A stretch of 59,536 nt of DNA, counting the filler, from Dugesia japonica (Eukaryota): assembly GCA_001938525.1 (NCBI GenBank). It is 5 parts of 5 records of this genome, joined end to end, with 100 filler letters (N's around TTAATTAATTAA, not from the genome) between each part and the next. Parts side by side here need not be neighbours in the genome. Positions count along the whole stretch, not along the records: positions 35,957 to 46,565 come from MQRL01630092.1; 4 more parts are not named here. The stretch is one strand, 5' to 3'. Below, in pieces: positions 2,639 to 59,021 of the stretch. Position numbers and translations under genes: made by a program. Under the pieces are notes generated by a model. That model worked only from the letters and a program-made list of their open reading frames with translations. It searched no databases and was not told the origin of the DNA. Position 1 is the stretch's first letter, and each line of letters begins with the position of its first letter.

Positions 2639-3680
2639 TACGAGGGATGTTTGAAAAGTTTTGAAAATGAAAAGAATAAAACCACATTTATTGTTCAAAA
2701 ATCACATTAATTTTCTACAAAATCTCCTTTTAGCTAAACACATTTAGTGCAATATTTTTCTAGCAACTGGATACCTTGGTTGTAATGACTTTCATCAAGG
2801 CTTGCAAAATAGCTGTCTACAGCATCAATTGCTTCTTGATTGTCATGAAAACGCTTTCCAGGTAGGACTTTTTTCAGGTTTGGGAAAAGAAAGAAGTCTG
2901 GTGGAGCCAAATCAGGTGAATAGTGTGGATGATCGAGCAAGTCGTACTTCAATTCATTGAATTGTGTCGTAGTTAAAGTGCTTTTGTGTGCAGGTGCATT
3001 GTCTTGTAGAAAAATGACTTTTTTCTTCTGCAAACCTGCGCGTTTTCCACGAATTTTGACATCCAATTGGTCCAATAGGCTTACATAATACTGGGAGTTG
3101 ATTGCTTTTTCTTTCTCAAGGTAATTTAATGACAAAATTTCTTTTGCATCCCAAAATACAGATGCCATAACCTTCCCTGCTGAAAAAACCATCTTGGCCT
3201 TCTTTGGTGCATTCAAACCAGCTTCCATCCACTGTTTGAATTGTACTTGCGTCTCTGGTTTGTAGTGGTGGATCCAAGTTTTATCCATAGTTACCAGACG
3301 ACCCATAAAATCCGTTTTATTATGATTAAATCTATCCAGACGTGATAGAGAAAATTGCATTCGAATGCGCTTTTCATCGATTGTTAGCAGATGCAGCACC
3401 CATCTTGCCCAAAGCTTTTTCATCTTCACATCTTCATCTGACTCAATATCATCTATTTCTTGAATGATTTGTGGTGTCTTGTTGCTGCTTGGTCGTCCAC
3501 TGCTTGGATAAGCTTCAATCTTCGTATGACCTCGTCAAGACTTTAAAGCCCACCTGTGAACTGTTGAAAAAGAAGGAGCACCTTCTTTTAATACTTTGAC
3601 ATGTTTGTATGGATTTTCTTTGTGGATAATCCTCGCAGGGCAAAGACTTTTATGATCTCTCTATATTCAATTTTTTCCAT
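2639..3680 (-). mobile_element. mariner (D,D34D) transposon, degenerate; one TIR visible
   Basis: VTMDKTWIHHY, FLQDNAPAH and HPHYSPDLAPPDFFLF motifs. N-terminus MEKIEYREII at 3680 is frameshifted. TIR-like TACGAGGGATGTTTGAAAAGTTT at 2639. Confidence 0.93.
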
Positions 3681-10493: not shown

Positions 10494-11506
10494 TTTAGTA
10501 CGATTTCCTGCAGCATATCCATCAAGAGATATATAATCTAGAGGCAATAGCATATATGCAACAAGATATGTACTCATTTTCACACTAGTCTCGTAAACAT
10601 CACAGAACATTCCATTTTCCAATTTCTCTATTGATTTCTACTTATCATTTCAATAAATAACTATGACAATAAAACAATATGTTTACTAATGGCATATTAA
10701 AAAGCGAATGATGATCTTTGTCTCGAATCATTTTCATACTGAAATTAGCTTTGAAATACGGTTCATCAAAACAAGGAAATGCTTGTCTAGCAAATGTCGG
10801 TTCCATGTGTGTGGTAATAAGAGTTCTATTAATAGTTTTTAAAAACATTTTTGAGTTAAATTAATATTTTTATGAAATGGATATGCAATAATAAATTTAA
10901 TGAAAGTTGATTAAAATGAGTTCAATTGAGATTCAAAAGAAATAATACAAATGTTGTTAAATGAAAAATATTAGTAAATTCATTTTCGAAAAATGAATTC
11001 TGTATATTTTTGTAAAAATAAATTTAGCTCAACTTGACCTAATCGGATTACAATCATTTTAATGCTACTTCTTTCTAATTTAGTCAACAATTTCAGAGAA
11101 TTTTTTTTATTGTTTCATTCTCGTTATTAGATTTTGATTAAATTACAACTACTAAATGATTATTTACATTATTTATTACTAAAACGAAGTTAAATAAAAA
11201 GTTTCAAATCAAGAAAATTTTTTTTAGATCAATTTTTAATAACTAATTAATAATTACTTGACATGATAATAATTGTGAGATAAAATATAATATAATAATA
11301 TAATATTCCTACATTGATCTTTATGTATTTGATGTAGAAAATTGACACAGATATTTAATTATTGGTGAATGTATGATTGTGTGTACGATTGTTGTGTTCA
11401 AACATTATTACATATTCGATTCCTAAAAAATATGCATACTAATTATAGTGTGTCATCTTGTGATTTATAAATATTATGACTAATTCATTTGAAACGTCTA
11501 ACAAAC

Positions 11507-11572
<66 letters not shown>

Positions 11573-11631
11573 NNNNNNNNNNNNNNNNNNNNNNNNNNNN
11601 NNNNNNNNNNNNNNNNNNNNNNNNNNNNNNN

Positions 11632-11679
<48 letters not shown>

Positions 11680-12318
11680 CTCCAAACCAGATTTTGTTTT
11701 GTAGTCGCTTAAATAAAATCCATCTAATCGTTTTTCAAGAGTTCCATTAAATGATAATTTAATACTAATTTTTTCATTGTTCATACAAATGCGCGTAAAT
11801 TTTAAATAATATTGATCTAATTTAGGACAAATTGAAATTGTTGATATTGGAATTATTTGATCTTCTATTTGAATTTGTGGATTATAGACAGTCAAAGACT
11901 TTGCGTGAAGGACTACAAAATCTGTACTCATTTTACATTTACCTTCAATGGTTACATGACCTGTAAAGTTTTTCCACTTAACCTGAGTAATATTTGGATG
12001 AATGTAAATGGAATAATTATTTGGTATGATTGATTTCGGCAATCTTATTTCTTGATAGAAGCATGGACGATTATTTTTGTCTTGATATTGAGGAGGACGA
12101 ATTTGAGAGAATGGGGATCTACCTGATTCAGATTTTGAACATGTTTTAAGTGATGTTATAAGTATAATAACAAATATGAGAATGATAATAAAAACTAATG
12201 TCAAAATAATGAAATTTCTTTTAGTGAAAAATGTCGATCTTTTCCGCTGAATGAATTCCACTGTAGAGATTTCAGTTTGCAAACCAGAAGATTCTGGATC
12301 AGTTAGACGTTTATGGTC
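10494..12318 (-). CDS. M1-family aminopeptidase (aminopeptidase N/ERAP-like type II membrane protein), 5' exons only
   Basis: TM anchor NFIILTLVFIIILIFVIILIT; RLPKSIIPNNYSIYIHP; GFYLSDY; THMEPTFARQAFPCFDEP.FKA.F; KMSTYLVA. Exons ~12318-11677, ~10826-10688, ~10638-10494 with GT-AG boundaries. HEXXH exons not seen. Confidence 0.9.
11506..11676. repeat. (TAA)n microsatellite (also ~13920-14148 and ~35812-35857)
   Basis: Pure AAT triplet runs; they explain the poly-Y/poly-L in the ORF track. Confidence 0.95.
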
Positions 12319-12589
12319 TGAAATGAATACGAATTTTAAAAATTATTATATTATTTAATATAAAAAACGTAAATAAATAATTGATAGTTTCGTTAATTAA
12401 ATCTAGGAAAGATCTATTTGAGAGATTAACAACTCTTATTTTAGAAAATACTCCTTTATAACATAAAAAAAGAATATTAAAGATAAATAAGAAAATAATG
12501 TTTTTAATTTTTAAACTTATAAACTCAAGTAACTCCAAGACAATTAAACTTCACTAAATTATTTTAATTATTATTTAAAAGATATATAC

Positions 12590-26884: not shown

Positions 26885-29800
26885 TATTTATTTTACAGTG
26901 GCCATAGGCCATACTTGTATTTTTCTCATTTCAAAAACGTTTATCATCTAAACATGATAATGCGCGTTTCCTACTTACAATCGAATATATCTGATGAATA
27001 ATCGACCTGAAACTCGATTAATATATTAGTTGTATATATTAGTTAAATTTAAAATCTCACAAGTCTCCATAAATTGTTTATTGATTATTACAAGTTTTTC
27101 TTAAAAAATAAAAATATGAAATAACAATTCACAAATGTGAAACAAATAATCTGAGAAATCTTAATCTTAAATCTTATTTTTCAAAAATATTGGTTTTTTA
27201 AATTCCAAAATAATTATTTTTAAACATCATTTTAGAAAATAATTTTTTAAAATTTTATAATTTAACACCATGTAAAATTTTAACTTTAATTTAAAATAGC
27301 TTTGTTTTACATATATATTTATTTATTTTTCAACCTTATAATTTTTAAAATTTTATATTTTAAAAATTTCAAAAAAAACCAATCTTAATATTAAATATAA
27401 AAATTAAAAAATCTCAGACATCTGAAATTCATGAATCGATACTCACATTCTCTTCTTTAAACCTTTTCCACATTTCTTTCAATCATATTGCTTTCTGAAC
27501 TTTTCAACAGGTATCGTCTACCATGAATCTATTTTATCATCTCCTAAGGATTTGTGTATCTTTCTTTGTCTTTTGATCGGTTTTCTGCCTTGATTAGCAC
27601 CTCGCCTCTACCTTGAAAATGTCTCTTTGTTGATGTCAATTCTTCCGATTCTTTCTTCTTTTCTCCATTATTGAACCGTCGTTCTCTATGTATTTTTCTA
27701 CCGAATACCAATTTTGCTGGCTTTATGCCAAAAGTCTTCTGGCTTGTTGCATTTAGAGTATATTCAATTTCTGATATTAACTCTGCCCAATTTTTATTCT
27801 TTTTATCTTTTAATGTTGTATTGATGTAATCTCTGATCGTTCTGAATTGGCGTTCTACTATTCCGTTTGTATTATGATGATATGGACTTGAGAAGCAAAT
27901 CGTTATATTCATTGAATCTGTCATTTCTTTGAAGGCTTTCGATTCGAAGATCTTTCCACAATCTACATGTATCTCCTTTGGAGCACCAAATCTAAAGCCG
28001 GAGATTCATTCTTTTTTTCAAATTTTCTACAGTCTTTCCATATAGAGCATTGTTTAAAACCTTGTAAAAATCATTTTCAAATTTTGTCCTTGACGCGGCT
28101 CTTCTTAATGAGTTTGAATTGATGTAATATCCAAATATTTCAGTTTGCTTAAACTCTACTATTCTATTCTGTAGTTACACGAGCCCCCAACAGTTTCTTC
28201 ACTTTCGATCCGTTAAGTATCCGATATCTGAATTGACATCATTGCATAGCATTTCTTGATATTTTTCTTCCACTTGATCTTCTTCTATAAATTTGAAATC
28301 CTTATATAGTAAAGGCTGTGTTAATTCCCAACCATATAAATTATTTATATCAATATAAACCAGTGAGGTATTCTCATCTGCCTGAACATGATGACAATTC
28401 CCAAACTTCATCCCGCCTCGAATACCCAATTCAAATAATCTATGCAATTCCATCAGCCGATCCATTATTTTGAGAGCACTTGACCAACTCAGTCCCGGGA
28501 ATGAAACAAATCGAAGCGGTTCCAATACAAGCTCTTCAAGTGCTTTTTCACGATTTATTTGATATACATCAGCGAGTAAATACATATACAATTTCATATA
28601 ATAAAGCATATATTTCAATAGATTCTTACAGCCAGATTCTGTCCATACCAATTTTGTCATTCCATATTCTTGTTCAGTTATTTCCGGCCATTGTCGCGGT
28701 AATGTTGTTTGATTAATTAACATTTCATATGATGTTGCAAATTTGTTCGGGGAAATACCTTTTCTTTGAGTTTTTTGAGGAAACTCTATTGATGCTATTG
28801 CCCAGCTATCTAAACTTGCAGATAAAGATGATAAAGATCCGCTCAGAAACTGGTATGAGTCAATGAATATAACTGTGACTCCTACAACACTTGCAAATAT
28901 GGCCAAATATTTCTCTGTATTTTGAGCAATTGGATTGATGTCCCAATGTTTAAATTAATAGAGTGCATATTTGACTATTTAATGCAAATCATAACTATTA
29001 AAGTTATGAAACACAACAGGTAACTCTCTTCTGATTTTACGCAATAAGTTACATTGACTGCATACCGCTCCAAGATATTTTCCTGAAAGTGATCATGATC
29101 ACAAACCAACTGGGCTTTCTTGCTTCCACGCATGTAATAATTTGTACTCTTTGTGAACGCTTCTTGTTTCAATGTTGTCAATTTCATATCTGTATGTGTA
29201 TTTGTATTGTACCATGGCCCAACTGAATCTTTTCACAACCGATCAATACACTGCAAAAATTCAACCATACAATTTTCACCAGAATATGAATAGTATTCAC
29301 ATTTTATTGTTTTATCCAATAATGGAATCAGCAAATGTCCATCAGCAATCGGTACATGTTTCACCATTCCACAATCCTCTGGTACTAAGATAGCTTCAAT
29401 ATCTGCATAAATCACAAAAGGTGGTGTAATGATTTTTCCATAATTTTTTAACCTTAATTCCTTTACCTCACGCATTGTATACAAGGTTGTCTTTTCTGTT
29501 ATTTGAGTGCACAAAGCTAAATGACGATCGAATGTAGCCTTTGTCTAGAATCAATGTAGACATTTAGAGCACCACTTTCTTCCAATCTGAATTTTATCTA
29601 TCTAAATTTACCACACCTGTGTAGTGAAATCCTCTATCATTTTCCAAAACAAGTAAAATTTACTATGCGTCCATTAGGGTTTTTGTACGAAAAATTATAT
29701 CCACATGTGGATTTTTATATAAAATGTCATCATCCACATCAATTGCTTCATTGTATTTAATAATGTGATTGATAGATTATTTTTTCTTTCGTTTATGGAA

Positions 29801-35856: not shown

Positions 35857-36388
35857 NNNNNNNNNNNNNNNNNNNNNNNNNNNNNNNNNNNNNNNNNNNN
35901 TTAATTAATTAANNNNNNNNNNNNNNNNNNNNNNNNNNNNNNNNNNNNNNNNNNNNATTTTGTAGTAATAAGATTGCACAATTTTCTCTAAATTCTTCTA
36001 TTTTAAAAGATTTTAAATTACATCTATTTTTATCACCTTCTTTAAATGAATTATAAAGTTGCATTCTAAATGTATCTGGTTCATTTATTCNNNNNNNNNN
36101 NNNNNNNNNNNNNNNNNNNNNNNNNNNNNNNNNNNNNNNNNNNNNNNNNNNNNNNNNNNNNNNNNNNNNNNNNNNNNNNNNNNNNNNNNNNNNNNNNNNN
36201 NNNNNNNNNNNNNNNNNNNNNNNNNNNNNNNNNNNNNNNNNNNNNNNNNNNNNNNNNNNNNNNNNNNNNNNNNNNNNNNNNNNNNNNNNAAATTTAGGTG
36301 GATCAAATTCATTTAATTCAGGTAATTCTTTAAATGTATTTCTTTCTAAAAATTCTAAATTATCAGGATTTGCAATAACAACTAAATT

Positions 36389-36652
36389 TTATGGTTCGAT
36401 AATGCCAAATTTAGTCAGCGAAGTTTCTTCCCCTTCTTCCTTTAAACTTTCACAATCGGTTCTTTCGGAGGCCAGCGAAGTGCATTCATCTTGATCACTG
36501 TCAGATTGTCCGTAGGCCAGCGAAGTGCATTCATCTTCTGAACTAATTAAATTATCAAGTGTTATTATTAAATCTTTTAATTCTTTTTTTAACTTTTCTC
36601 CATTCTTAATTTTAGGTAAAACATTTTCAATTTTACATATAACATCTTCCAT
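36389..36652 (-). CDS. Small acidic hypothetical protein of element B with DECTSLA repeats
   Basis: ATG preceded by TATATAAGAA; a 23-bp direct repeat encodes DECTSLA twice. Confidence 0.5.
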   Translation of the reverse strand: MEDVICKIENVLPKIKNGEKLKKELKDLIITLDNLISSEDECTSLAYGQSDSDQDECTSLASERTDCESLKEEGEETSLTKFGIIEP

Positions 36653-36859
36653 TTCTTATATAAATAATTTAAATAACACGCAATGCGTGTCGAAACCCAG
36701 TTTCTGGTTTTTAGATTCCAAGTTTAGCACGCATTTCAGAAATAACTTTATTTTGATTTTCAAGTAACAATTTTAAATTATTAGTGTCAGTCGCTTTGCT
36801 TGCATGTTTATGTCCAGATATCAAATCATGAACATCAGAAACCATCTTTTTCGAGATCA

Positions 36860-38332
36860 TCAGTTCATCATCCGTAAGTATTTCATCATTAACTGCTTTC
36901 TGTTGAAATAAAAAAATAAAAAATAAAAAGGTGGATTTACAGAATAAGGTAAATAATTATCAATTAAATGTTTTATTTTTATAATGTTAAATGTTTCAGA
37001 TAAAATATTAAATTTATCAATAAAATATTTATGAAGATAAGGTTTTATCTTTTCAAATTCTTTAGTTAGATCTTCACATTTTTTACTGTTATCTAACATT
37101 TCTCTTATGGCTTTATTATTTAAAACTTTAAATAATAAATCAATATTGTTAATTTGTTTATTATTTAATTTTGGTTTCACTAATTCATATTCTTCTTTTA
37201 ATTGTTCAAATGTTTCCGCTGTTTCACTGATAACACTTAATTTTTCTAACCAGAATGCTTTTGGTAAAATTATTTCAATAAAATTTATTTTTGTTTCATC
37301 TATAATTGCTCTAAAATTTATATAATTTTCTTCCATATCAATTTTAAATCCATGAATGTTTTTTTTATTAACTTTAATGACAAAATAAAAGGTTTTAGAT
37401 ATATAAAAATAACCACTTATATCAACATAAATTCTTTCATTTATCTTTGTGGTTAAATAAATATAAAAATCATTTAAAATATAAAAATGTTGATTTTCCA
37501 TTAAACATTCTTTTCTTTTAAAATCTAAATAGGTAACATATTTATCCATAACAGTAAATTGTGGAAGATCCATAAAGGAAGGAAGATCGCTTTTATTACA
37601 AAAAATTGAAAATATTATTTTTTTAGTATCAAGAAAAACATATGGTAAATAATTATCAATTAAATCTTTTATTTTTTCGAATGAATTAGATTTAAATAAA
37701 ATGTTAAATCTATTAATAAAATTTATATGTAGTTTAGGTTTTATTTTATCATACTCTTTAAATAAAATTAAATGATTTAAATATAAATCAAAAGTTTNCT
37801 TATCCAAATTATCATTTAATTTTTCAATTTCTTTTTTAATTTTAGATGAATCAATAGACAAATCTAATTCTTTTAATTTATTAAGTAGATCACTTTTTTT
37901 ATATGGAAATAGTTCAAGTTTTAATCTTTTAATCTTACTTGTGATATTATCAAATGTTTCTTGGTTACAATTCTTTGTTAATTTTTGAATATCAACATTT
38001 AATTTTTTAACATCAACATTTAAAACTTTTAATTCGTTGATTTTAGATTCTAAATATAATTTGTTAGCTGTAAAACTATCAACTTTTAATAATCTATTGA
38101 AAATTATTTCGTGTCTTTCTAATTTTTCTTCAAGAGATTTTATATATTTTAAATTAACTGCATCTTGTAGATCCTTGGGATCATCTTTTATTTTTAAAGA
38201 TGTTATTGTGTCACCTGTTTCATTTACAAATTTATTTTCATTTTGAGCATCTGAGTTTTTGATTTTAGCATTTACATTTTTCAATATTTCTGTTGAATTA
38301 CCAGAATCAGCTGTAGCACCAAACTTATTCAT
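36860..38332 (-). CDS. Putative fibre/structural protein of element B
   Basis: MNKFG start; FVNETGDTI...DPKDLQDAVNLKYI (DAVN..Y fibre-like motif); coiled coil; three copies of a KE(Y/F)..(I/V)KP.L....I..(F/I).IL repeat. Overlaps the protease stop. Confidence 0.6.
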   Translation of the reverse strand: MNKFGATADSGNSTEILKNVNAKIKNSDAQNENKFVNETGDTITSLKIKDDPKDLQDAVNLKYIKSLEEKLERHEIIFNRLLKVDSFTANKLYLESKINELKVLNVDVKKLNVDIQKLTKNCNQETFDNITSKIKRLKLELFPYKKSDLLNKLKELDLSIDSSKIKKEIEKLNDNLDKXTFDLYLNHLILFKEYDKIKPKLHINFINRFNILFKSNSFEKIKDLIDNYLPYVFLDTKKIIFSIFCNKSDLPSFMDLPQFTVMDKYVTYLDFKRKECLMENQHFYILNDFYIYLTTKINERIYVDISGYFYISKTFYFVIKVNKKNIHGFKIDMEENYINFRAIIDETKINFIEIILPKAFWLEKLSVISETAETFEQLKEEYELVKPKLNNKQINNIDLLFKVLNNKAIREMLDNSKKCEDLTKEFEKIKPYLHKYFIDKFNILSETFNIIKIKHLIDNYLPYSVNPPFYFLFFYFNRKQLMMKYLRMMN

Positions 38333-38780
38333 CTATTTCTTTATATAAAGATTTTTCAACGAGAACATAAAGTGACTTCATTTCAGATATTATATCCTCG
38401 AACTTATCTTCTTGAATTTTATATAAAAAATAAATACATAAAATTCCACATATTTCAGTGTTAAAATGTTGCACTTGAATTTCATTATATTTCGTGACAT
38501 ACTTCGCGATTTCTATTAAAGGTTTTAAACCAAAAGAATCAAAATAATATCCTTTATGATAAAATGTCCAATGTGTTCCATTTTGATTTGAATTTTGATA
38601 ATTAAAAATATAATTCATCGAATTTATCAGTGTAAATTTCTTTCCGTTGGTCAGCGTAGCGCATTCATTTTTCATGTAAATCTCAAGCCGAAGATTAAAA
38701 AAGTCTGATATCGAATATAAATCAAAATTTGTTGTTGTAGAAATGCCAAATGTTTTTAAAAAATCTAATAAACAATACAT
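38325..38780 (-). CDS. Adenain-like (C5) virion maturation cysteine protease
   Basis: N.QNSNQNGTHW, YFDSFG, Q.Q......CG..C: intact His/Asp/Gln/Cys catalytic set. Confidence 0.93.
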   Translation of the reverse strand: MYCLLDFLKTFGISTTTNFDLYSISDFFNLRLEIYMKNECATLTNGKKFTLINSMNYIFNYQNSNQNGTHWTFYHKGYYFDSFGLKPLIEIAKYVTKYNEIQVQHFNTEICGILCIYFLYKIQEDKFEDIISEMKSLYVLVEKSLYKEIDE

Positions 38781-38840
38781 TTATTAAAAGTAAAAAATCG
38801 TCTTCATTTACAACAGTATGATTAAAAAAAATATCTTAAA

Positions 38841-39512
38841 ATGACAAGTTTATTTCCACCTGAAAACATTAAAACTCTTGAAGATATTTATAAATTTGTA
38901 AATTATAAAAATAGTGTTTGTGATATACTAATGTATATTGAAGAAAAAAAAGATGATCTTAATTTTATTGAATATAATGACATTACAAATTTTAAAGATA
39001 TTTATAAATATGTAAATTTAAAAAATAATGTTAATGATATAAAAAAATATATTGATAAAAAAAGATTTGATATTATTTATCTATCTGCTGATATTTTCAA
39101 AGCTCTTGAAGATATTTATGAATATGTAAGTTTAAAAAGTGATGTTTCTGAAATAAAAATGTATATTGAAGAAAAAAGAAATAATCCTATTAATCCATTT
39201 GATAAGCCCAAATATTTAAAAGTTTTAAATAGATATTTTTCCGAAAAAAGAAGAACACCTTTGACGAATGATGAAATAAAAATTTATCAAGAAGCATTTA
39301 AATATTTTATTTTTAGAAGAAAAAATCCTGTTATTTCACGTGAAGAAGTATTTAATTTTATGTGTTTTAAAAATAATGGGGGAAAAAATGAGTTCGTTAC
39401 TGTTAAACCTGAAGGCGCTAACTTATGTGGCTGCGCTAAGGTGGACTACGTACAAACAGATATTTTTGAATGCACTACGGAATCTGATATTTTAAAGTCG
39501 ATATTTTCTTAG
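38841..39512 (+). CDS. Hypothetical protein with three ~39-aa internal repeats (only plus-strand gene of element B)
   Basis: LEDIYKFVNYKNSVCDILMYIEEKK / FKDIYKYVNLKNNVNDIKKYIDKKR / LEDIYEYVSLKSDVSEIKMYIEEKR; open 223-aa ORF. Confidence 0.7.
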   Translation: MTSLFPPENIKTLEDIYKFVNYKNSVCDILMYIEEKKDDLNFIEYNDITNFKDIYKYVNLKNNVNDIKKYIDKKRFDIIYLSADIFKALEDIYEYVSLKSDVSEIKMYIEEKRNNPINPFDKPKYLKVLNRYFSEKRRTPLTNDEIKIYQEAFKYFIFRRKNPVISREEVFNFMCFKNNGGKNEFVTVKPEGANLCGCAKVDYVQTDIFECTTESDILKSIFS

Positions 39513-40205
39513 ATGAGCTAAAATTGTAATTGTTTCTTGGTTAAAATCTATAGTGTTAAAATTTTCATCTACNNNNNNNNNNNNNNNNNNNNNNNNNNNN
39601 NNNNNNNNNNNNNNNNNNNNNNNNNNNNNNGATGGTCTTTCTACTATTTTATATCCAAATGGAACTGTGTTTATTGGAAATGAATATAAAAGATTAATAT
39701 TTTTTGTTTCCTTGTTATTTGTTGCATAATTACCTTTAACAATGTTACATGTCACATTTATCGCGTTAGAATTTATAATGTTAATTTTTTCAGAAGAATA
39801 ATAATTTCCAGGTTCATATTTTCCTGGTTTAAATCCGAGTATTGTATGTAAAAATGATTTGGAATCAAAACTTATTGTGGTTTTAGTTTTGATATTACAT
39901 TTAGATGTTGCAGTGTCAGGTGTAATTTCTAGATATTTTTCTAATCGATTTGACATTTCTTTTACTTCATATGATCCTGGTTCTAGAGTTATGGCTTTGT
40001 CTTCCCCTTCTGCCTTGTTGCCCTTGTGGTTTATTATGGCTTTGTCTGTATGGAATTTATTATTTAAATTGTTGATATTAAAAATAATATTGTAACATGA
40101 AAAATATAACAATCCAAGTTCATATTCTGAATCTAATTTTATCGGATAATCTAAATTTATTTTTAAATCTTGTTCTGTACCAACTACTAAGAATTGATGA
40201 GACAT
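39492..40205 (-). CDS. Minor capsid protein (penton, single jelly-roll)
   Basis: PIKLD..YELGL..F..YN.IFNI...NNKF, I.L.PGSYE, ILGF, I.V.CNIV.G.Y, F....P.GYKI.E.P, VDEN...IDF..E.I....HLR: the Maverick/adintovirus penton pattern. Confidence 0.88.
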   Translation of the reverse strand: MSHQFLVVGTEQDLKINLDYPIKLDSEYELGLLYFSCYNIIFNINNLNNKFHTDKAIINHKGNKAEGEDKAITLEPGSYEVKEMSNRLEKYLEITPDTATSKCNIKTKTTISFDSKSFLHTILGFKPGKYEPGNYYSSEKINIINSNAINVTCNIVKGNYATNNKETKNINLLYSFPINTVPFGYKIVERPXXXXXXXXXXXXXXXXXXXXVDENFNTIDFNQETITILAHLRKYRL

Positions 40206-40209
40206 TTTG

Positions 40210-41151
40210 TTAAGATTTAAAATATTTAGTTTTATATTTTTTATAAATAATATCAGATAATAAACCTTTAGATTTTAAATTTTTACATACATTCTTGATT
40301 TCAGATGCGAGATTATTATGTCCAGATTTTACAGCCGAAATTAGTAATGTTAACTTTTCAAATAATGCAATTGGGTTTTTTACCTTTATGGGTTGTGCCT
40401 TTATGGGTTGTGCCTTTATGGCAGTACCAATTGTACTTTTTGTTGCCCCTATGGTTTTTTTTGCCCTTGTGGTTTTTGTAGGTGGATTTATTATTGCTTG
40501 TAAAAATCTAATATAATCATTAGTAACTGGTGAATTTTTTACTATATCATTTAAATATATTGTAATATAATTTTTCATTTCTTCATCATTTTCTTTTATT
40601 TTTTCTTTATGTCCACAAATTAAATCCATAATTTTATCTGAATATTCATGAATTTTTCCATTGACTGAAAAATGTGGTTTATTTTTAATATCAAAGAAAA
40701 ATATAACCACATTCCCTGAAAATAATATTCTTAAAAATTTCTTACCAATTTCAAATTCCGCATAAGCAGGTAAAGGTTTTATTTTTCCTTTTATTACATT
40801 AGTATTAATTTTTATATCAGGATTAAATGGAGTTGTAGTTTCTTCTGATAATAATTCAGCAAGTGCGCCATCTTTCAAAGTTAATTCTAATTTATATTTA
40901 TTTTTATTATAAGTTTTATATTTTTCTTCTATAGTTTCTGGTTTTATGGGTTTGTCTTCGTGGTTTATTATGGTTCTTTGTTTGTTGTCATCCCTTAGTT
41001 CTAATTTTTCTAATGCAGAGATTGTTGGTAGTTGTAAAGTGGATAAGTTACTTTGTAAAGTATTATAATCAAGAATTTTACTAGAAAAATAATTATTATA
41101 TTGTTCTTGAGATTTAATTAATGCTTTTAATTCTTTAATTCTTTTTTCCAT
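40210..41151 (-). CDS. Conserved invertebrate-Maverick protein of unknown function
   Basis: C-terminal NP..L.EKL.LLI.A.KSGHNN...EI......L...G.. motif recurrent in Mavericks; AQPIK tandem repeat. Confidence 0.7.
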   Translation of the reverse strand: MEKRIKELKALIKSQEQYNNYFSSKILDYNTLQSNLSTLQLPTISALEKLELRDDNKQRTIINHEDKPIKPETIEEKYKTYNKNKYKLELTLKDGALAELLSEETTTPFNPDIKINTNVIKGKIKPLPAYAEFEIGKKFLRILFSGNVVIFFFDIKNKPHFSVNGKIHEYSDKIMDLICGHKEKIKENDEEMKNYITIYLNDIVKNSPVTNDYIRFLQAIINPPTKTTRAKKTIGATKSTIGTAIKAQPIKAQPIKVKNPIALFEKLTLLISAVKSGHNNLASEIKNVCKNLKSKGLLSDIIYKKYKTKYFKS

Positions 41152-41223
41152 TAGCTCTTTTTTCGCGCAGCTCTTTTGTAAAGATTTAATATGTACGTAG
41201 TCCAGCTACATAAAGTTAGCGCC

Positions 41224-41826
41224 TTATTGTTCATCTTCGTCTTCATCATCTTCGGTTTCGGTTTCATCTTCGGTTTCATCTTCAATACCTTTTCCAGATT
41301 TATATGGATTTAAATAAATACCTTTTCCATGTTGAATTATGCGAGTTCCGGATTTAAATTTTTTAGTTAAACTTTTAAATTTAGGATCAATATTTTTTAA
41401 ATATTTATGTATTGCAGTGCCTTGATATGGATTTAGAAAAATACCACGGCCTTTTTCGCCTTTATGGTTTTTAATTCCAGTTCCTGTAGTTGTAACTGTT
41501 GGAGTTTGTTTGTTCGCTTCGCTTAGTTTGTTAGCTTCTACTTGTTTTTGTAAATCAATTAATTCACCTTGTATTTTTTTATTAATGACATCTCTAGAAT
41601 TTGCAACTGTACCTGCAATTCCAGATGCAGCACCAGTTGCAGTTGCTAATGCTGCAATTATTGCTGGTATTGCAGCTAGAAATGCAAAACCGCCTTCTTT
41701 ACTTCGCATTTTTGCTTCATCTTTAACTTTTTTAGAAATATAATAATTTTTACCATTGATCTTTACAGATTTACATTTTCTAGAATTTATAATTTTAATT
41801 AATTCTTCTTCTGTTGCTTCTGACAT
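41224..41826 (-). CDS. pX/mu-like core or membrane-lytic precursor protein
   Basis: KEGG|FAFLAAIPAIIAALATATGAASGIAG resembles adenovirus pX (GG|FLP.LIPIIAAAI.A.PGIA); repeated GxG|I sites; acidic tail. Confidence 0.75.
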   Translation of the reverse strand: MSEATEEELIKIINSRKCKSVKINGKNYYISKKVKDEAKMRSKEGGFAFLAAIPAIIAALATATGAASGIAGTVANSRDVINKKIQGELIDLQKQVEANKLSEANKQTPTVTTTGTGIKNHKGEKGRGIFLNPYQGTAIHKYLKNIDPKFKSLTKKFKSGTRIIQHGKGIYLNPYKSGKGIEDETEDETETEDDEDEDEQ

Positions 41827-41886
41827 TTATTATATTAACATTTTAAACAAGGAGTGCATTTAGTATAACGAGAGCAAGGAGTGCAT

Positions 41887-44800
41887 TTATTGAGAGCAAG
41901 GAGTGCATTTATTGAGTCGATTGATTTTATCTAATCTTAAATGCCATTGTCCACAATTACAGAGATATTGATTTCCATGTGGCCATGTTTTTGTTCCATC
42001 ATCTTCTATGATTCTTTTATCATCAAATGCCATTAGAGCTATTTTCTTTTGTTCTTTTATTTCAATTTCATGATTATCTGATTTTAATGTATAATTTGTT
42101 CCGTAGATTATTTTCTTTGGATCATTTAATACTGAATCAAAATCTGACATNNNNNNNNNNNNNNNNNNNNNNNNNNNNNNNNNNNNNNNNNNNNNNNNNN
42201 TTGATGGGCTTCAGTGTATGAATAAGCATAAGATTTTGCTTTTATAAAATTAGCTTGTGTTATTTCAGAATTAGGTTTTTCATCTTTCATCTGGAAAAGA
42301 TTATCTCCAAGTAGACTTTCTAATTTTAAAAGATTATCTCTTTTTTTAATTTCAACAAAGATTGCATCAGTATTTTTTATTATCAATGGAAATCCACAGT
42401 TAAATGTGCCATCTTGGGTTTCAATGTCGTATACATCTTCTATGTTTTCTCTTAAAAATCTTACAGATTGGACATTAGTAGGAATTTCATCATCTAATTG
42501 TAAAAAACTAAAACAATTATTTTTTAATGGTATAATAATTAAATTCATTCCTAAAGATGTACCTTTATAATAAGCTTTAGATAAAGATATTTTATCTTTA
42601 AATATTTGTCTAGTAAAAGGAAAATCTTTATTATTTGGTTTAAATATTTTTTTATGTAATAATTTAGTTTCATGGGTTAAATCTGTTGGTTTAATATGTT
42701 CACATTTATCATTTAATAATGAGTGATCTTCTGTTACATCAACAATTCCAAGATGAGTTCTTACTCTATAAATCTTTTTATTTGTTGTATGTTTTATTAC
42801 TTTTTTTAATTTAACGAATCCACTTTTAGTCCAAATTTCAAGGTTTTTAGGAAAAGAATAATATTTGTTATCATGATAATTCTTTATATAATTTTGATTT
42901 ATTTCTGAAATCTTTTTAATTATTACTTTATAATTTTTCCTTAGAATCACCGGAGTGTCATGGGTTACACTATCGGTGTAATGAATTTTATAATTATTTT
43001 CAGAAATCAACGGTTGCATTTGTTCATATATAAAATTATACATTACTTGTTTTGCATGTTCGAGGATTGTGAATCCTTTATATGGAAATTTATTATATTT
43101 TAATTTAGCTTTTATCATTTGCATTGCTGCAACTGTGGCTTCATTTGAATCATTTATTGAGAAGATTTTAGATGATTTAAATGTTGGTTTAGCTGCAAGT
43201 CTTTGGTATGCTTTGTCAGTATCAACAATTTCTATGTTACATCGATTTCTAATATTTTCAAGGGTTTTGCCATAGAAAGCATTTAACAATAATTTATAAA
43301 TATAATCTCCGAAGACATCTTTAATTCTTTTAGATTCTTTTCTTAGAGATATTAATTTATGAACATAATCTTTAAACCATGTAGAGGTTTTCATTTTAAT
43401 TTTCTTATGTATTTTTATAAGTTTCATTCCAAGTTTTAAATATAGATCTAAAGTTGATCCGAGACATACATAATTTTTCTTGTCAAATTGATTTAATGTT
43501 AGTTTTATATTATCTTTTGATAGTTTTCTATTAAATGATTTTTGATAAGGACCTAACATATCTTCTGTAATATTTATTCTTTCTGGTGCTAATGGGAAAT
43601 ATTTAGTTTTATCGTGGATCTCTTTTGGATATTCAAGGTCAACTTCATATATAAAATTCATATTATCATCTGAGATTTCATAAGTTAGCTCGTTACATTC
43701 GTGGAGTTCGCCTGTTGGAAGTGGTCTTGTCATGCAACTTGCATATAAAGAGTTTTCATCAATATATTTTATAAATGTTTCTTCTTTCCAATCTACTGGT
43801 GGAATTTTATTTTTTATTAATGAAAATAATATCTCAGAGACTTGTGTTTTATTTAATCGTCTGTTGGTGCCAAATCTAGGATTTGATTGATTATTGACGT
43901 TCATTACTTGACGTTCACCTAGAACACCTGAATAGCCACCCCGGATTCCAGATTCAATTGTTAAGAAAAGATCATAAGTTTCTTGTTTCGCATATTTAAG
44001 TTTTATATTTGCATTTAACATTCCAGTTTCCCATGAATATCCTGGTGCTGAATATGAATAACAAGGATCTAGTTGAAGAAGATTATTTAAACATGAATTT
44101 CTAAAATTTTCTAAGAAGTCAGTTAGAATTAGAACATCAAGTTTCATGTAGTGTAGCATGTAATCCCAGAGATTTTTAAAATCTAAATAATCTATTAAAA
44201 ATTTATCATATTCATCATCAGATATTCCCTTTTGTGTTAGTGTATTAAAGAAATCATTTCTAGTTGGTGTTCGTTTTGATTTTAATAATTTTTCTACTTC
44301 TTGTATAGTGTCGCCTTTTATATATTCATATGGAAATGAGATTTTTTTAGGTCTTAAATTGAAAGATGTTAATATTGGATATTTATTGGAAGATGTTAAT
44401 AAATTACCCATTGTTTCTATAGATGTGAATGGTAATAGTCTTGCTGAATCTAGGAATTTAATATTTTGAAATTGAAATGAAATATAATTATCTGATGTAT
44501 GTGGAATTATCTTTTTTACTTTTCCTGGAAATCTTGTTAGTAGTTCTCTGAAAAATAAATGATTATCATAGCCGGATGCGTTATGAAAATAAAATGGAAT
44601 GAATAGATTTATTACACTAAAATCATATAAATTACATTTTTTATGTGAATAACCACGGAATTCATTTGTGAAATGATTATGATCTATAACTGGATCTTCG
44701 GTTATTATTGGTTTATCACAATAATAACATAATTGATTATTATACTTTGGATATGTGCCTGTGAATTCTTTTATTAATTTATTTTCTTTTATATCTTCTA

Positions 44801-46286
44801 TTTTATTATTAGTGTCATTTAAAAATTCAAAGAATTCTAGATAAATGTTTTCACCTGTGAAACAATAATATTTAGATTCTAAGAGATGTTGATGTTCACT
44901 GTGAAGATAAATTCCTAATGATAATGCTTTTTGTTTTTTCTTTGAATTTGTATATGCTTCAAAATCACCTATTAATATGAAAGGTAATTTATTTTTCTGG
45001 TAAAATTTATTAAAGAAATAATAATCTTTATATTCAAACACAATGTTATTTGGTCTGTGATTAATACATGCTTTTTGATGTTTTATTAAAAGCGGTTCAT
45101 TGGAATAACAAGTCATGCATCGTATGTATGGATATTTTTTATTTTTGTTTCTTGTGAAAAATACATTTAAATCTCGACATAGAACATATTGATCTTTATA
45201 AATTAATAAGTTGCATTTATTTTCTTCTGGTGAAGGTTTTGCTGTATGATGCGAAATGTATAATGGTTCGAGTTTCTTGTTAGCATTCACACCGAAAACA
45301 TTTATTTTATAATTATTTAATTTCTCGAATTTATGTATATCACCGATGTTCATTGGAAAATTAAAATCTGATTTTAATTCTTCTAAATATGGAATGTAAT
45401 TAGAAACACGTGTTGGATTATCAAGAATATGTTTATGTGCTAGAATTGAATATAGAAAACATTTATTATCTTTATTTTCTATGTTAATTACACCTTGTAT
45501 TTTAAATGGTAACTTTTTATATGTTGCACCAGCTTTTGATTGATATTTATTTAAATATAAAGTATAGTCGTTAATATACAACATTGACCAACCTGAACCT
45601 TCAAGATCTTTATCTTCAATATGTTTATTTAAATCATTAAATATTTCATTGACAGCGGTATTAATTTCGGATTTAATTAAAATTGTTTTATTAAATGAAG
45701 ATGAATATAAATCTCTTTCGGTATCTTCTTTTGAATATCTACATTTTACAACCATACTTACAATTGCCTGATTTACACATTTAAAATATTTCATAATAAT
45801 TTGTCTTATTTCATTTTTAAATACATTAATCATTCTAATTTCAAAATCATGTTTTTCATAAACATCATAAAACATTTCAACTTTAGAATTTAAATAATAA
45901 GTTATTTCATGTTTTTTATACATTCTTAATGCATCTCTAATTTCTGGTGAATAATCAATTGCTTCTTCACCTGGAAGTTCATCAAAATTTAATTTAATAA
46001 CTTTTTGTTTGTGACTTAAAGAATTAAAATGTGCTCGAGCGTGATTTTGTTTTTTAAATACTTTATCACAGATTTCACATAATAATAGGAAAATTTCATT
46101 GTTTCCACAATTATATGAATTTAAATGCGCCTTTAAATCACTTTCTCTTTTAAATGATTTATTACATTTATTACATTTTAATGTTGCATCTTTATAACAA
46201 GTTCTAGATGCGAGATGCCCATTTAAACCTGCTTTATTTTTAAATATTTTATTACAATTATCACATTTAAATANTTGTGTTGTCAT
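41887..46286 (-). CDS. polB: Protein-primed family B DNA polymerase with N-terminal zinc fingers, Endo VII-like domain and an intein
   Basis: GSGW, N.DNKCF, GDFEA (Exo I), FHNASGYD (Exo II), YMKLDV (Exo III), GIRGG, YIDENSLY (A), KLLLNAFYGKT (B), YTD-intein-TD (C). C-terminal ALMAFDDKR...T.PHG lies in ORF 41887..42150; the frame change falls in the N gap 42151-42200. Confidence 0.96.
42372..42971 (-). mobile_element. 200-aa mini-intein in pPolB motif C
   Basis: Block A SVTHDTPVIL, block B VRTHLGIVDVTEDHSLL (TxxH), block F VYDIETQDGTF, block G PLIIKN followed by Thr+1. Removing it restores HYTDTDAIF. Confidence 0.93.
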
Positions 46287-46370
46287 CTTTTTTATATAGA
46301 ATTTATTTAATCATAGAGGGTAAAAAAGAGGATATTTTGTAATTTAAGAGGATTTATTATATAATGCCAC

Positions 46371-46548
46371 TGTGACATTTTTGCATTTCACATTTTGCAT
46401 ACGACATTTTTGCATACGACATTTTTGCATTTTGCATTTTACATTTCACATTTTACATAGGAAATTTTTGCATTTCACATTTTGCATACGACATTTTAAA
46501 ATACCCCCTGAATCCAAATCGTGTTATATCTATTACTGATATACTACA
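46371..46548. repeat. Subterminal repeat array and candidate terminus of element B
   Basis: Repeated cattttgcatacga / catttcacatttt units (46371-46497), a C5 block, then ...atactac (rc GTAGTAT, close to the AGTAGT Polinton end). Confidence 0.6.
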
Positions 46549-46665
46549 TTAACTCAAATTCATTTNNNNNNNNNNNNNNNNNNNNNNNNNNNNNNNNNNN
46601 NNNNNNNNNTTAATTAATTAANNNNNNNNNNNNNNNNNNNNNNNNNNNNNNNNNNNNNNNNNNNN

Positions 46666-47765
46666 TGAGTACGCAGATTTTTTTCATGTCCAAAAAAGAA
46701 GACCCCAATCGTGATTTATGGCATGGAGCTCCGTCTTGTGGAAATATATTCTGTGCCTCATATATTGGCAACAATCCTTTCTTTAATACATTTATGTAGT
46801 CATCAGAATTCATCCAATCCAGACACTTTATCAGAACTCTGGTACCATCTTCTTTGATTGCACCCCAAACCATCAAACTCTGACCTCCGAATTTCACCGT
46901 TTTCGTGGTATATTTTGGATTATACCTTGATCCTTAAGGTCTGCGGACATATTCTCTTCTTCTAGAGAATAGTTTTATGCGACTTTCAGCAGTAAGAATC
47001 ACCTCATTCCAAAAAGAAGGAAGCACTTTGCTATAATCTCTGCATCACTTTAAGCGATTCTTGATATGTCTCTCATTTAAATATGGTTTTTTCGCTGCAA
47101 TTCGTTCGAGCAAGCCATACTTTCTCAGAATGCGATTCATAGTGCTAACTGAGGAAGTTTGGCTTAATTTCCAATCGATAAAAAGATCACGTGCTGTTTT
47201 CTGGGATTTTTCGTTGACATCCGAATAAGTGATCCTTTTGATCTTTGTGTATTTTTCGGGTTACGACCACTTTTACTTTGGTTTTTCAATGTTCCATGTT
47301 GTTGCAGCTTCCGTACAATATGTTGAATGCATTCCTTCAAATATTGAGTTCATTTGAAATGTTCCGCCGAGACAAACCCTCTTTCAATTTTTTAATGACT
47401 TAATTCCTAATATCTATTGATATCTTAGCCATATTTGACATAAGAATTTATAAAAGTAAAAAAATATATTACTTAATCATTAGCAAAATGTTGTACTTAT
47501 CAATTTTACTTAAAATTTTAATTTATTCATTAAAATAGTTTATATATGTAAATAACATCAAAATTTAAAAAACGCCTTAACATAACAAATCTATTTTAAT
47601 AATTATAAAATAATTTTTGTAAATAATTATTTTAATGAAGTATAAAGCTAACATCAACATATTTCTAAATTAAAATAGTTAAAATCATAAAACTTTTAAT
47701 ATAATTCGTAATCTACAATTTTTTGCATTTTTAATGGGTGGCCCAAAACATATGGACGGGATTGT
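46666..47765 (-). mobile_element. Tc1-family transposon, degenerate 5' part
   Basis: KFGGQSLMVWG, FPQDGAPCHKS, SGR and KKPYL motifs; end rc TA-CAATCCCGTCCATATGTTTTGGGCCACCC. Confidence 0.88.
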
Positions 47766-57781: not shown

Positions 57782-59021
57782 ATGGTAGAAGTCGAAGCTA
57801 AAATCATTAAACAAATTGAGGTAAGTTATTTAAAGTTTTTAAAATTTCTAATTTTTTCTTTAGTATTATTTTAGTGACATAAATATAGTGAAAGACAATC
57901 ATCTTAAACAATTAATTGAAAATTCTACAGATGGATGTAAATTCTTCTTGTCATTGTAATTTATTTATTAATATAGGGGTTGCATATGACGAGTTACTGA
58001 AATTTCCGAGATTAAAAAGTATAACTGAAGATAAAGAAGCAATTAAAACCGCCATACAGAATTCTGGATCAGTTATTGTTGAAGCTAATGATGACGGTAT
58101 TCGAAGAAATGTGTCACTAGCTATACCAGAAAATTTGTTAGGAATTACCGAAAAACACCTTGATAAAAGTGTTTATGTTAAAGGATTTTCTCCAAAAGAA
58201 ACTATTGATGCAATTATGGAATATCTTGAAACCCATGGTGGTCCAACCATGAATATCCATATGAGGAGATTGCCAAAAGATAAAACATTTAAAGGAAGTG
58301 TTTTTGCCGTATTCAAAACTGTTGAAGATGCGGAAAAGTTTCTCTCAAATGAAGAATCCTTGAAGTTTAAAGGAAACGATATGGTTAAGACTTGGCAGTA
58401 AGCTGGAAATTTTCACGTTATAAATATTGATAATCTATTAGAAAAGATTATTTAGAAGCTAAAAAAACCGAATACGACGAGAGACATAAAGAAAAGGAGA
58501 TTAGACAAAAGGAATTAATCGCTACTAAAGAAGCTCTACTTCAATCGAAAATGACAGTTGGTGCCTTGATTGAGTTTTCTATGATGAAAAAAGATGAAAA
58601 TTCCGAAGAAAAGGGTGATTTTGATGACGCCAGAGATGAAAAAGCTTCGACGAAAACTTTTAAAAGCTGGCTAACATTGTTGGTTACCGATATCGCTCCA
58701 GTTGCCTGGGTTGAGTTTTTCCCTATATCCAAGAAAATTATTGTCAGATTGGGAAANNNNNNNNNNNNNNNNNNNNNNNNNNNNNNNNNNNNNNNNNNNN
58801 NNNNNNNNNNNGAAGGAAAGGAGGCATTTAACTATCAAATTTATGAATTTACCGGTGTTGTTCTTAAAGACGAAAAAGAAAAGGATTATTGGAGAAATAT
58901 TTTAACTGAACAAGGACAAAAGAGAAAAGTTAATTAATTTAATTAATAATTTTTTTTAAATTTATTTATTCAGAGAAATGACAGAAATGCTGGTCCATAT
59001 AGAAAGAAAATGCGAAGATAA
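57782..59021 (+). CDS. SSB: La autoantigen homologue (La motif + RRM1 + divergent RRM2)
   Basis: Spliced MVEVEAKIIKQIE|YYFSDIN..KD..L...DG|WV...LLKFPRL (La motif); SVYVKGF and FKGSVFAVF (RNP2/RNP1); four ~43-45 nt GT-AG introns; basic C-terminus. Confidence 0.92.

Follow-up and report, generated by a model that had tools for sequence, protein, structure and literature searches.

A predicted self-splicing mini-intein within a Dugesia japonica Polinton's DNA polymerase and its likely movement between copies

Polintons (Mavericks) are described as carrying a DNA polymerase B that is protein-primed (pPolB), an adenain-like protease and a pX-like gene, as does, putatively for the last two, the element analysed here, together with an rve integrase, an A32/FtsK ATPase, a double-jelly-roll capsid, PLA2 and inverted termini, as do longer copies colinear with it (PMC8502044). 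An OTU-like domain was found with HHpred at the N-terminus of adintovirus PolB (PMC8502044). HNH/VSR nuclease insertions in Polinton pPolBs place a nuclease within the polymerase, as in our case (PMC10748475, PMC11071308), and were suggested to result from intein invasions (PMC11071308), while polymerase genes are exchanged among Polintons (PMC10748475). Inteins of giant-virus (Nucleocytoviricota) polymerases share with the insert described below the motif-C site, Ser1, a Lys/His-Asn end and Thr+1, and likewise occur with and without LAGLIDADG (PMC5784728, PMC5871332). Fungal and Anaeramoeba nuclear inteins also reside in eukaryotic nuclear DNA, some of them virus-linked, and spread by homing (PMC5784728, PMC10710043). 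Animal genomes hold the HINT fold in Hedgehog/Hint domains, and the eukaryotic intein survey states that metazoan genomes are without inteins (PMC5784728). Within a 59,536-nucleotide stretch of Dugesia japonica DNA (the window), we consider it probable that one contig is the truncated right-hand portion of one copy, likely integrated and in part deleted, of a high-copy Polinton family, and that the polymerase of this copy holds a motif-C mini-intein, predicted to splice and likely spread by endonuclease-driven homing.

The window element and its family

Contig C630092 (G000:C630092; 10,609 bp) makes up the whole of positions 35957..46565, and its colinearity with longer paralogues identifies 35957..46537 (minus strand) as the right-hand 10.6 kb of a likely integrated, adintovirus-like Polinton/Maverick, the left side being cut by the contig end. 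A terminus of the element, reading inward AGTAATAG, lies at 46530..46537 (minus strand); the identical 8-mer with diverging flanks occurs in C612179, C648488 and C608461, as well as at the left end of C615268. Comparison of copies leaves the 28 bases that follow (46538..46565) unshared, and these are likely host DNA. Thus, an initial sequence-only reading was right that the stretch is a whole contig, but the element stops short of filling it. Subterminal tandem repeats with a unit of 14-15 bp (46379..46512; repeat family D2) have counterparts in similar arrays of the paralogues. Terminal inverted repeats with AG...CT ends are a Polinton feature, and the window supplies one terminus; in C615268, the two ends form an 89-bp inverted repeat (96.6%). 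The 6-bp target-site duplication expected of Polintons would need a left end that lies outside the window contig and, in C615268, a right terminus that falls inside a run of N. At the other side, an open frame without match in the paralogues is cut by the contig end and a run of N (35957..36388, minus strand). Since a terminus with an unshared flank is combined with an internal deletion, the window copy is likely an integrated, partly deleted member of a high-copy Polinton family rather than an episomal virus, as had also been proposed.

The pPolB gene, of about 1,460 aa including the intein, runs on the minus strand through 41887..46286 (Pfam DNA_pol_B_2, PF03175, E 1e-19), with both Exo and Pol motifs located. 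Its ORF begins at 46286; the sequence-only reading missed both the 200-aa intein and the extension to 41887: an 87-aa ORF at 41887-42150 is the C-terminus beyond a run of N, and paralogues read through it in a single frame. C2H2 zinc fingers occupy the N-terminus (46008..46268, minus strand; Pfam zf-met E 3e-8, zf-C2H2 E 2e-6), where Pfam detected no OTU-like domain. An Endonuclease VII/HNH-like motif (44628..44741, minus strand) matches Pfam Endonuclease_7 at E 0.005, below the curated cut-off; the same family matches the relative P0004 at E 3e-8.

Downstream on the minus strand lies a pX/core-protein-like ORF of 200 aa with an acidic tail (41224..41826), which matches Pfam Adeno_PX below the cut-off (E 0.012) and is kept in paralogues. 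It is followed by a conserved 313-aa ORF of unassigned function (40210..41151), 36-42% identical to paralogues over long stretches and without a match in the Pfam search, and by a 237-aa ORF (39492..40205), 75-85% identical to paralogues. From its motifs and gene position we take the latter to be the likely penton (minor capsid); searches of Pfam and PDB profiles gave no match, and its model has a pLDDT of 38.8. On the plus strand, a 223-aa accessory ORF with a 38-aa repeat present three times (38841..39512; family D3) belongs to some copies only, with 40 genome matches and none in loci L013-L030. The 151-aa adenain-like cysteine protease (38325..38780, minus strand) has His, Asp, Gln and Cys invariant in 6/6 copies, presumably the adenain catalytic-type motif; Pfam Peptidase_C5 was matched by one paralogue only (E 0.044), and PDB profile searches with this ORF and the penton-like one returned nothing relevant. 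A repeat-containing, possibly fibre-like ORF of 490 aa (36860..38332, minus strand) has had its C-terminus removed by deletion: compared with paralogue L024 the last ~140 aa are gone, followed by readout in another frame. Adjoining it is the 3' remnant of a membrane-protein gene (36711..36899, minus strand), which retains 62 codons of a protein of ~200 aa in paralogues and is 73-90% identical to their C-termini. A small acidic ORF of 87 aa (36389..36652, minus strand) has no match in loci L013-L030. A poxvirus-type late promoter was considered and rejected, TAAATG occurring at 5/75 starts against 7.9% of background ATGs, which is no enrichment. The motif TATAA[AG]ATG stands at 12/75 starts against 0.3% of background, in copies that are not independent.

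The sequence-only reading had described a young, largely intact, multi-copy Polinton/adintovirus amid decayed mobile elements. Its family and copy number are borne out by the colinear paralogues, and mobile pieces elsewhere in the window that give long frames are indeed partial, the longest frame being 266 aa. The eight ORFs are where it placed them and all begin with ATG; runs of N break into the left end and into both the pPolB and the penton-like frames, so that the described absence of internal stops would apply only outside these runs. The two truncated genes show that the copy is not fully intact, and neither youth nor recent activity or a collapse of near-identical copies is borne out by the closest paralogues compared, which are 78-93% identical per kb and in no case above 93% (37 and 40 candidates scored). 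The assembly is very fragmented (648,594 contigs), with pieces similar to each other in thousands.

As had been noted, ORF and Pfam searches of 35957..46565 reveal no capsid, ATPase or integrase. C635298, C615268, C587997 and C643967 have the same gene order and then continue leftwards, as predicted, into an ATPase and a PLA2-integrase, with the major capsid in three of them (Pfam E-values: 1.5e-17 for the DJR capsid, 1e-10 for rve, 2e-8 for PLA2 and 1e-10 for Pox_A32). C643967 holds a mini-intein, ATPase, integrase and major capsid on one contig. These relatives support placing the core genes of the window element beyond the left contig end, their apparent absence being an assembly cut.

The motif C insert

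The insert comprises 200 aa (600 bp; 42372..42971, minus strand) and interrupts polymerase motif C as YTD / intein / TDA. We identified it as a mini-intein by its residues, its fold and the empty sister copies. It has Ser1, TxxH in what we take to be block B, an Asp in what we take to be block F, a C-terminal Lys-Asn and Thr+1. Across copies, Ser/Cys1 (27/27), Thr80 (27/27), His83 (26/27), Asn200 (27/27) and Thr+1 (25/25) are conserved, and the block F Asp is kept in 32/35. The penultimate His, usual but not universal in inteins, is replaced by Lys in 27/27; a Lys-Asn end is also common among giant-virus-type intein relatives. The structural model shows a HINT fold (pLDDT 74.8), and the Foldseek PDB matches listed were all intein or intein-like (best E 3e-6; 20 matches at E<=0.001; TM-scores 0.3-0.5). 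Pfam Intein_splicing matched the window copy weakly (E 0.079). The 631 database proteins that match the insert are mostly PolB, and the parseable sites among them are motif C. An intron was rejected as an explanation on the basis of 200 in-frame open codons, the lack of GT-AG ends and the intein fold. Sequence and model together predict a class 1 intein that splices itself out.

Two LAGLIDADG motifs are present in the sister alleles L062, L065, L066, L070 and L080 and missing from the window copy, where a remnant (42483..42656, minus strand) aligns to the endonuclease end of the full alleles. Under the proposed mechanism, the polymerase would be made as a precursor containing the intein; splicing would proceed through an N-O shift at Ser1, attack by Thr+1 and cyclisation of the terminal Asn, restoring YxDTD. 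LAGLIDADG-bearing copies would cut empty motif-C sites in other Polinton genomes within the same cell, and the cut site would gain the intein when a filled copy serves for its repair. Mini-inteins would travel too, either by acting as templates for such repair (homing in trans) or through recombination.

Distribution and movement of the intein

The motif C site was compared in 117 related contigs, of which 82 are empty, 33 are filled at the same codon and 2 could not be called. Among the filled copies, some hold mini-inteins and others a longer form that includes a LAGLIDADG endonuclease (19 mini and 2 full, where callable), and at least 150 copies occur in the genome. The endonuclease segment is matched by at least 25 contigs at 77-100% (LAGLIDADG_3 E 6e-5). 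Each of the nine full-length alleles seen has a gap, a stop or a frameshift; homing may therefore belong to the past. Most of the compared sites are empty, and an efficient nuclease would not leave so many. Among 22 in-frame sequences of 28 minis, taken in pairs that are not independent, dN/dS was 0.41 and 0.21 for the splicing halves, 1.14 for the endonuclease remnant and 0.31 for the polymerase flank. Judged by these ratios the splicing halves are under purifying selection, which would imply that the host lineage has both spliced these polymerases and put them to use. A form that skips the intein occurs among the contigs of a public DNA run. RNA-seq mapping, which the sequence-only reading had proposed, was confined to 3' pPolB and gave 1, 21 and 4 reads in three runs, one of them matching at >=95%; a search of sequencing runs listed no RNA run as carrying the sequence.

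On a flank tree of 129 copies, in which subfamily B copies were selected by their intein, intein state changes 28 times, with at least 10 changes forced by starred branches. Because shuffled data give 37 changes, inheritance explains part of the pattern. The trees of intein and polymerase conflict (AU p 0.039, 4e-59 and 5e-4, for groups named after the trees were seen), which points to movement of the intein between subfamilies. Inteins are 79.9% identical when compared across subfamilies and 81.1% when compared inside them, against 72.2% and 83.9% for the flanks, and pN across subfamilies is 0.146 for the intein and 0.244 for the flank. The window intein is 91% identical to that of L032, whereas their flanks are 71-75% identical, and at each end of the intein identity falls over no more than a few codons. 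Single intein-flank swaps may be chimeras, given the fragmented assembly and the conserved intein ends; at the C-terminal end, 35-40 bases hardly vary. From these comparisons the intein likely moves between Polinton copies.

Several other explanations were weighed. The intein may be genuine but inherited, with no shuffling beyond what ordinary recombination or gene conversion brings about when Polintons replicate together, and repeatedly lost with precision; its endonuclease would be dead and homing would have ended long ago. The lack, among the alleles seen, of an endonuclease that is intact and gap-free, the excess of minis and the fact that the window-L032 swap concerns a mini-intein, unable to home alone, are all in keeping with this, as is the swapping of polymerase genes among Polintons (PMC10748475). 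Nevertheless, we regard it as unlikely. In full alleles the endonuclease parts are more alike (median 90.6%) than the N-terminal splicing halves (84.0%) and have a dN/dS of 0.41, which fits recent selected spread; the abrupt drop in identity at either intein end and the placement of the nearest outside intein, P0002, in an unrelated polymerase class also speak against this account.

Alternatively, the apparent mobility could be an assembly artefact in which intein and flank haplotypes were misjoined at the conserved intein ends. Fragmentation, thousands of similar pieces and the near-invariant C-terminal bases would favour such misjoining, but chimeras cannot erase the deep split of the flanks from the intein pool, outside clusters also contain filled and empty members, and the intein-skipping form is present in contigs of the DNA run, making this account very improbable. 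We give even less credence to a helper-dependent or episomal virus truly without capsid, ATPase and integrase. These genes are absent from C630092, its left terminus is not seen and its left open frame has no match in paralogues; yet all three genes lie further left in colinear relatives, the contig end falls inside an open frame, and the terminus, unshared flank and deletion indicate an integrated copy. No evidence for helper dependence emerged: the family is an ordinary complete Maverick, the case in which the sequence-only reading itself had dropped that idea.

Beyond endonuclease-driven homing as such, we lean towards a broader reading in which a Polinton-own intein lineage, related to those of giant viruses, homes between distant Polinton classes, with the full cycle (empty, endonuclease-bearing, mini) running among hundreds of copies of a single animal's nuclear genome and minis moving in trans.

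Origin of the intein and comparison with known systems

The closest outside intein is P0002 (support 100/99 and 100/100), and the palm of its host polymerase has no BLASTP match to the window pPolB. Related inteins at the same site occur in giant-virus-type polymerases and in Polinton-type polymerases of other assemblies; in the outside cluster P0020 (n=15), 7 members are filled and 6 empty. Identity to the giant-virus inteins is 42-48% across full-length inteins, and one relative is on a giant-virus MAG contig. Of the candidate stretches, 1/76 from public viral contigs and 3/74 from metagenome contigs proved to be relatives; these four have a large PolB-like ORF in gene-dense surroundings, none of them Polinton-like by ORF listing. 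A single clade of Polinton inteins is recovered with full-length inteins (with a long-branch warning) and by FastTree, but not by the careful splicing-half tree. The Polinton intein lineage likely shares an origin with the motif-C inteins of giant-virus-type polymerases, and such a link would imply a cell once shared by both.

No report of a splicing Polinton intein was found in the literature searched, which left Repbase and subscription journals outside, and the word 'intein' does not occur in the supplements of PMC8502044 and PMC10748475. The presence of an intein here contrasts with the metazoan absence stated in the survey (PMC5784728), and provides a concrete case for the suggested derivation of nuclease inserts in Polinton polymerases from inteins (PMC11071308). 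As every state of the homing cycle coexists in this genome, a single animal could serve for the study of homing and of how the endonuclease is lost or regained.

Compared with described Polintons, the window copy is cut and partly deleted, its pPolB has an intein and N-terminal zinc fingers and lacks a Pfam OTU match, and PLA2 in its family is fused to integrase, not to pX (PMC8502044). The HNH-like motif in its pPolB is a likeness to the HNH-bearing Polinton polymerases; those HNH/VSR inserts, as far as they are described, come without a splicing domain or empty/filled polymorphism, whereas in the present family the catalytic motif is split by a HINT fold with LAGLIDADG (PMC10748475, PMC11071308). 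Fungal and Anaeramoeba inteins interrupt host genes, while the window intein parasitises a multicopy viral element (PMC5784728, PMC10710043). Hint domains cleave one end; the insert has both splice junctions and a +1 nucleophile, as well as endonuclease-bearing and empty alleles (PMC5784728). Unlike the giant-virus inteins, its host is the protein-primed polymerase that an integrating element encodes, likely in an animal genome, and a single assembly holds its empty, mini and full alleles (PMC5784728, PMC5871332).

A truncated copy within a large Polinton family

The interval 35957-46565 comprises one entire contig (G000:C630092) of 10,609 bp, and the eight ORFs that the sequence-only reading had placed there are present. 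Of the gene labels proposed in that reading, polymerase was upheld by Pfam (PF03175, E 1e-19, along with its zinc fingers and, weakly, an endonuclease VII motif), pX rests on a weak match of the 200-aa ORF (E 0.012), and penton and fibre were not confirmed. The 151-aa ORF keeps a His, an Asp, a Gln and a Cys in 6/6 copies, which we take to be the adenain motif. An accessory gene with three 38-aa repeats (38841-39512, plus strand) lies in opposite orientation between the penton and protease ORFs; it found no match in a Pfam search, has 40 matches in the genome and is missing from most long paralogues.

The copy had been described as young and largely intact. It is damaged: some 140 residues are gone from the C-terminus of the 490-aa ORF, and of the neighbouring gene no more than the final 62 codons are left. 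Its youth was not shown, since the closest relatives compared are only 78-93% identical per kb; collapse of near-identical copies in the assembly is possible. At its right end the contig reaches a terminus also found in four other copies, beyond which lie 28 unshared bases, and the family continues leftwards; therefore the copy is most likely integrated and was cut by the assembly.

The element is a member of a large family, for which a DNA search, with 37 of 20,331 candidates scored, returned 115 matches. Longer contigs extend the same gene order leftwards through a membrane protein, variable ORFs, an ATPase, an integrase fusion (zinc-finger/PLA2/rve) and the major capsid protein, which bears out the earlier proposal that the missing core genes lie beyond the left contig end. 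Pfam recognized these genes in the paralogues as Pox_A32 (E 1e-10), rve (E 1e-10), PLA2 (E 2e-8) and DJR capsid (E 1.5e-17). One paralogue contig, C643967, holds a polymerase with an intein as well as the three core genes, and in another, C615268, the two ends form an 89-bp inverted repeat. As written, the earlier finding is that of an ordinary truncated Polinton.

Several features of the family were seen in passing. The complete copy in C615268 is embedded in a 44-bp tandem satellite, which flanks it to the left and right (L030:1-74; L199 beyond ~3090). In the 17-kb copy in C643967, long inverted repeats make up the two ends (L202:1-300 and L203:6575-6995) and take in the 5' portion of the polymerase gene. 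The first ORF beside the left terminus is conserved in paralogue loci (L030:380-1024 and L028:371-1444, both plus strand), has a repeat-rich tail that is acidic or Asn/Lys/Gln, and was without a match in a Pfam search. The string TATAA[AG]ATG, often preceded by TAAAT and a pyrimidine tract, stands at 12/75 gene starts against a background of 0.3% (window 46287-46330; MCP, integrase, pX and ORF1 starts in paralogues) and may be a promoter or start context that the genes share.

Elsewhere in the window, on another of the joined records, 28199-28954 (minus strand) is a decayed fragment of another Polinton-type polymerase. Three further minus-strand fragments resemble a mariner transposase (2734-3534), a retrotransposon integrase (27544-28005) and a Tc1 transposase (46610-46873). 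Host genes are represented by La protein exons (57916-58937, plus strand), one of which matched 2/697 candidates, both trematode proteins, at 48-50%, and by what we assume is likely a membrane aminopeptidase exon (11485-12342, minus strand). The La protein matches make a flatworm host likely.

An insert in polymerase motif C

The window polymerase reads KIHYTD, then 200 residues running from SVTHD to LIIKN (42971-42372), then TDAIF; judging from paralogues with an empty site, removal of the insert would restore motif C. Pfam gave a weak match to the insert (E 0.079), its best PDB sequence match was a split intein (E 0.001), and the AlphaFold model (pLDDT 74.8) matched inteins and intein-like domains exclusively. 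A protein search with the insert found 631 proteins, with RNA-primed PolBs predominating among the matches listed, and wherever the insertion site could be parsed it was the same motif. One of the relatives is encoded on a contig of a giant-virus MAG. A related full intein also occupies this motif in P0199, a prokaryote-like family B polymerase, and relatives of the intein may therefore occur outside giant viruses too. Splicing residues are almost invariant across copies, and rough pairwise estimates of dN/dS, made on the 22 in-frame of 28 mini-inteins (those without an endonuclease), were 0.41 and 0.21 for the splicing halves and 1.14 for the central remnant. The insert is almost certainly an intein, real by every test applied, and it is very probably functional in splicing.

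Allele states and probable movement between copies

In a search with the mini-intein, 150 of 1,450 candidates were scored, and every one of these matched, at 61-100%. Since a query with the intein itself would select for filled sites, we counted allele states using as query the 120 residues that precede the site and examined 117 of 150 matches: 82 had an empty site, 19 a mini-intein and 2 a full one, 12 were filled but ran into a contig end, and 2 were uncallable. Full alleles are ~345 aa long with two LAGLIDADG motifs, and the endonuclease segment occurs on at least 25 contigs; among 9 full alleles seen, none was both gap-free and without stops or frameshifts. Contig C587693 (L070:1438-2741) shows two intein starts 245 bp apart followed by one intein end, which reflects either partial duplication or a join made in assembly.

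Mapped onto a tree built from 129 upstream flanks (two rows left out), intein presence changes 28 times, at least 10 of these forced by the starred branches; shuffled presence gave 37 changes, so that clustering is also present. The window copy and that in C619764 have inteins 91% identical, with flanks at only 71-75%, whereas C366577 shows the opposite pattern (flank 92%, intein 76%). Trees were also built for 34 filled copies: a clade of 8 copies in the flank tree (100/100) was not recovered by the inteins, and the window copy and C619764 were sisters in the intein tree only (99/95). AU tests on 33 rows gave p values of 0.039, 4e-59 and 5e-4, for groups named after the trees had been seen. 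Between subfamilies pN was 0.244 for the flank and 0.146 for the intein; within subfamily A it was 0.096 and 0.143.

The mechanism that we propose starts from the observed insertion site, fold match, conserved residues, three allele states and tree conflict, and takes its splicing and homing steps from established intein chemistry as covered in the consulted part of PMC7765530. Class 1 splicing would restore motif C, the LAGLIDADG nuclease would home into empty sites, and minis would have moved in trans or by recombination. One remnant motif is common to all 22 aligned minis, which suggests a single old loss of the nuclease, with later movement probably proceeding without it. In 7 full alleles, a small sample, the nuclease parts are more alike (90.6%) than the splicing halves (84.0%), suggesting that the nuclease recently spread or was regained. 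Homing is probably the main route by which the intein has moved.

The element is near silent in three RNA samples, taken from individuals other than the assembled one: among 1.6-1.9 billion letters per sample, 1, 21 and 4 reads matched the 3' part of pPolB, and one of these reached ≥95% identity. In a DNA run, 11,516 contigs fell on this part, and one of them contains a junction bypassing the intein.

Relatives outside the genome and known systems

The same intein, with its nuclease, is present in Polinton-type polymerases of other public assemblies (P0002, P0004, P0018, P0020, P0291, P0292, P0295 and P0324) and in fragments (P0211, P0216); of 15 listed members of the P0020 cluster, 7 are filled and 6 empty. 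The P0002 intein is sister to the flatworm inteins (57% over 343 residues). The polymerase palms of P0004 and P0020 match the window family at 31-35% by BLASTP, a search in which the P0002 palm gave no match to the family; from its motifs, we take the P0002 polymerase to be of the other (Alpha/VSR-type) class. A full-length intein tree, unrooted and with a long-branch warning, set 12 Polinton rows apart from 26 others (100/100), and a careful tree of the splicing halves did not recover this branch.

Inteins are known from fungal nuclear, chloroplast and giant-virus genomes, with absence from metazoans stated in the portion of PMC5784728 consulted, and protists and algae were added as hosts in PMC10710043, whose consulted text lacks the words metazoa, animal and Maverick. 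An origin of pPolB nuclease inserts from inteins is offered as a suggestion in the consulted part of PMC11071308. In the searchable text of PMC10748475 and PMC8502044, supplements included, the word "intein" does not occur, and the portions consulted of PMC12220804, PMC3671162, PMC5718144, PMC10991399, PMC6431247 and PMC5871332 describe no Polinton intein. An intein in a Polinton polymerase appears undescribed so far in this literature, with Repbase and most subscription journals outside the search; the combination, of two known kinds of element, is new. In this family, moreover, a zinc finger and a PLA2 domain of the parvovirus type precede the integrase (L030:2665-3909 and L028:3094-4602, plus strand): PLA2 is fused to the integrase, whereas described adintoviruses have it joined to pX.
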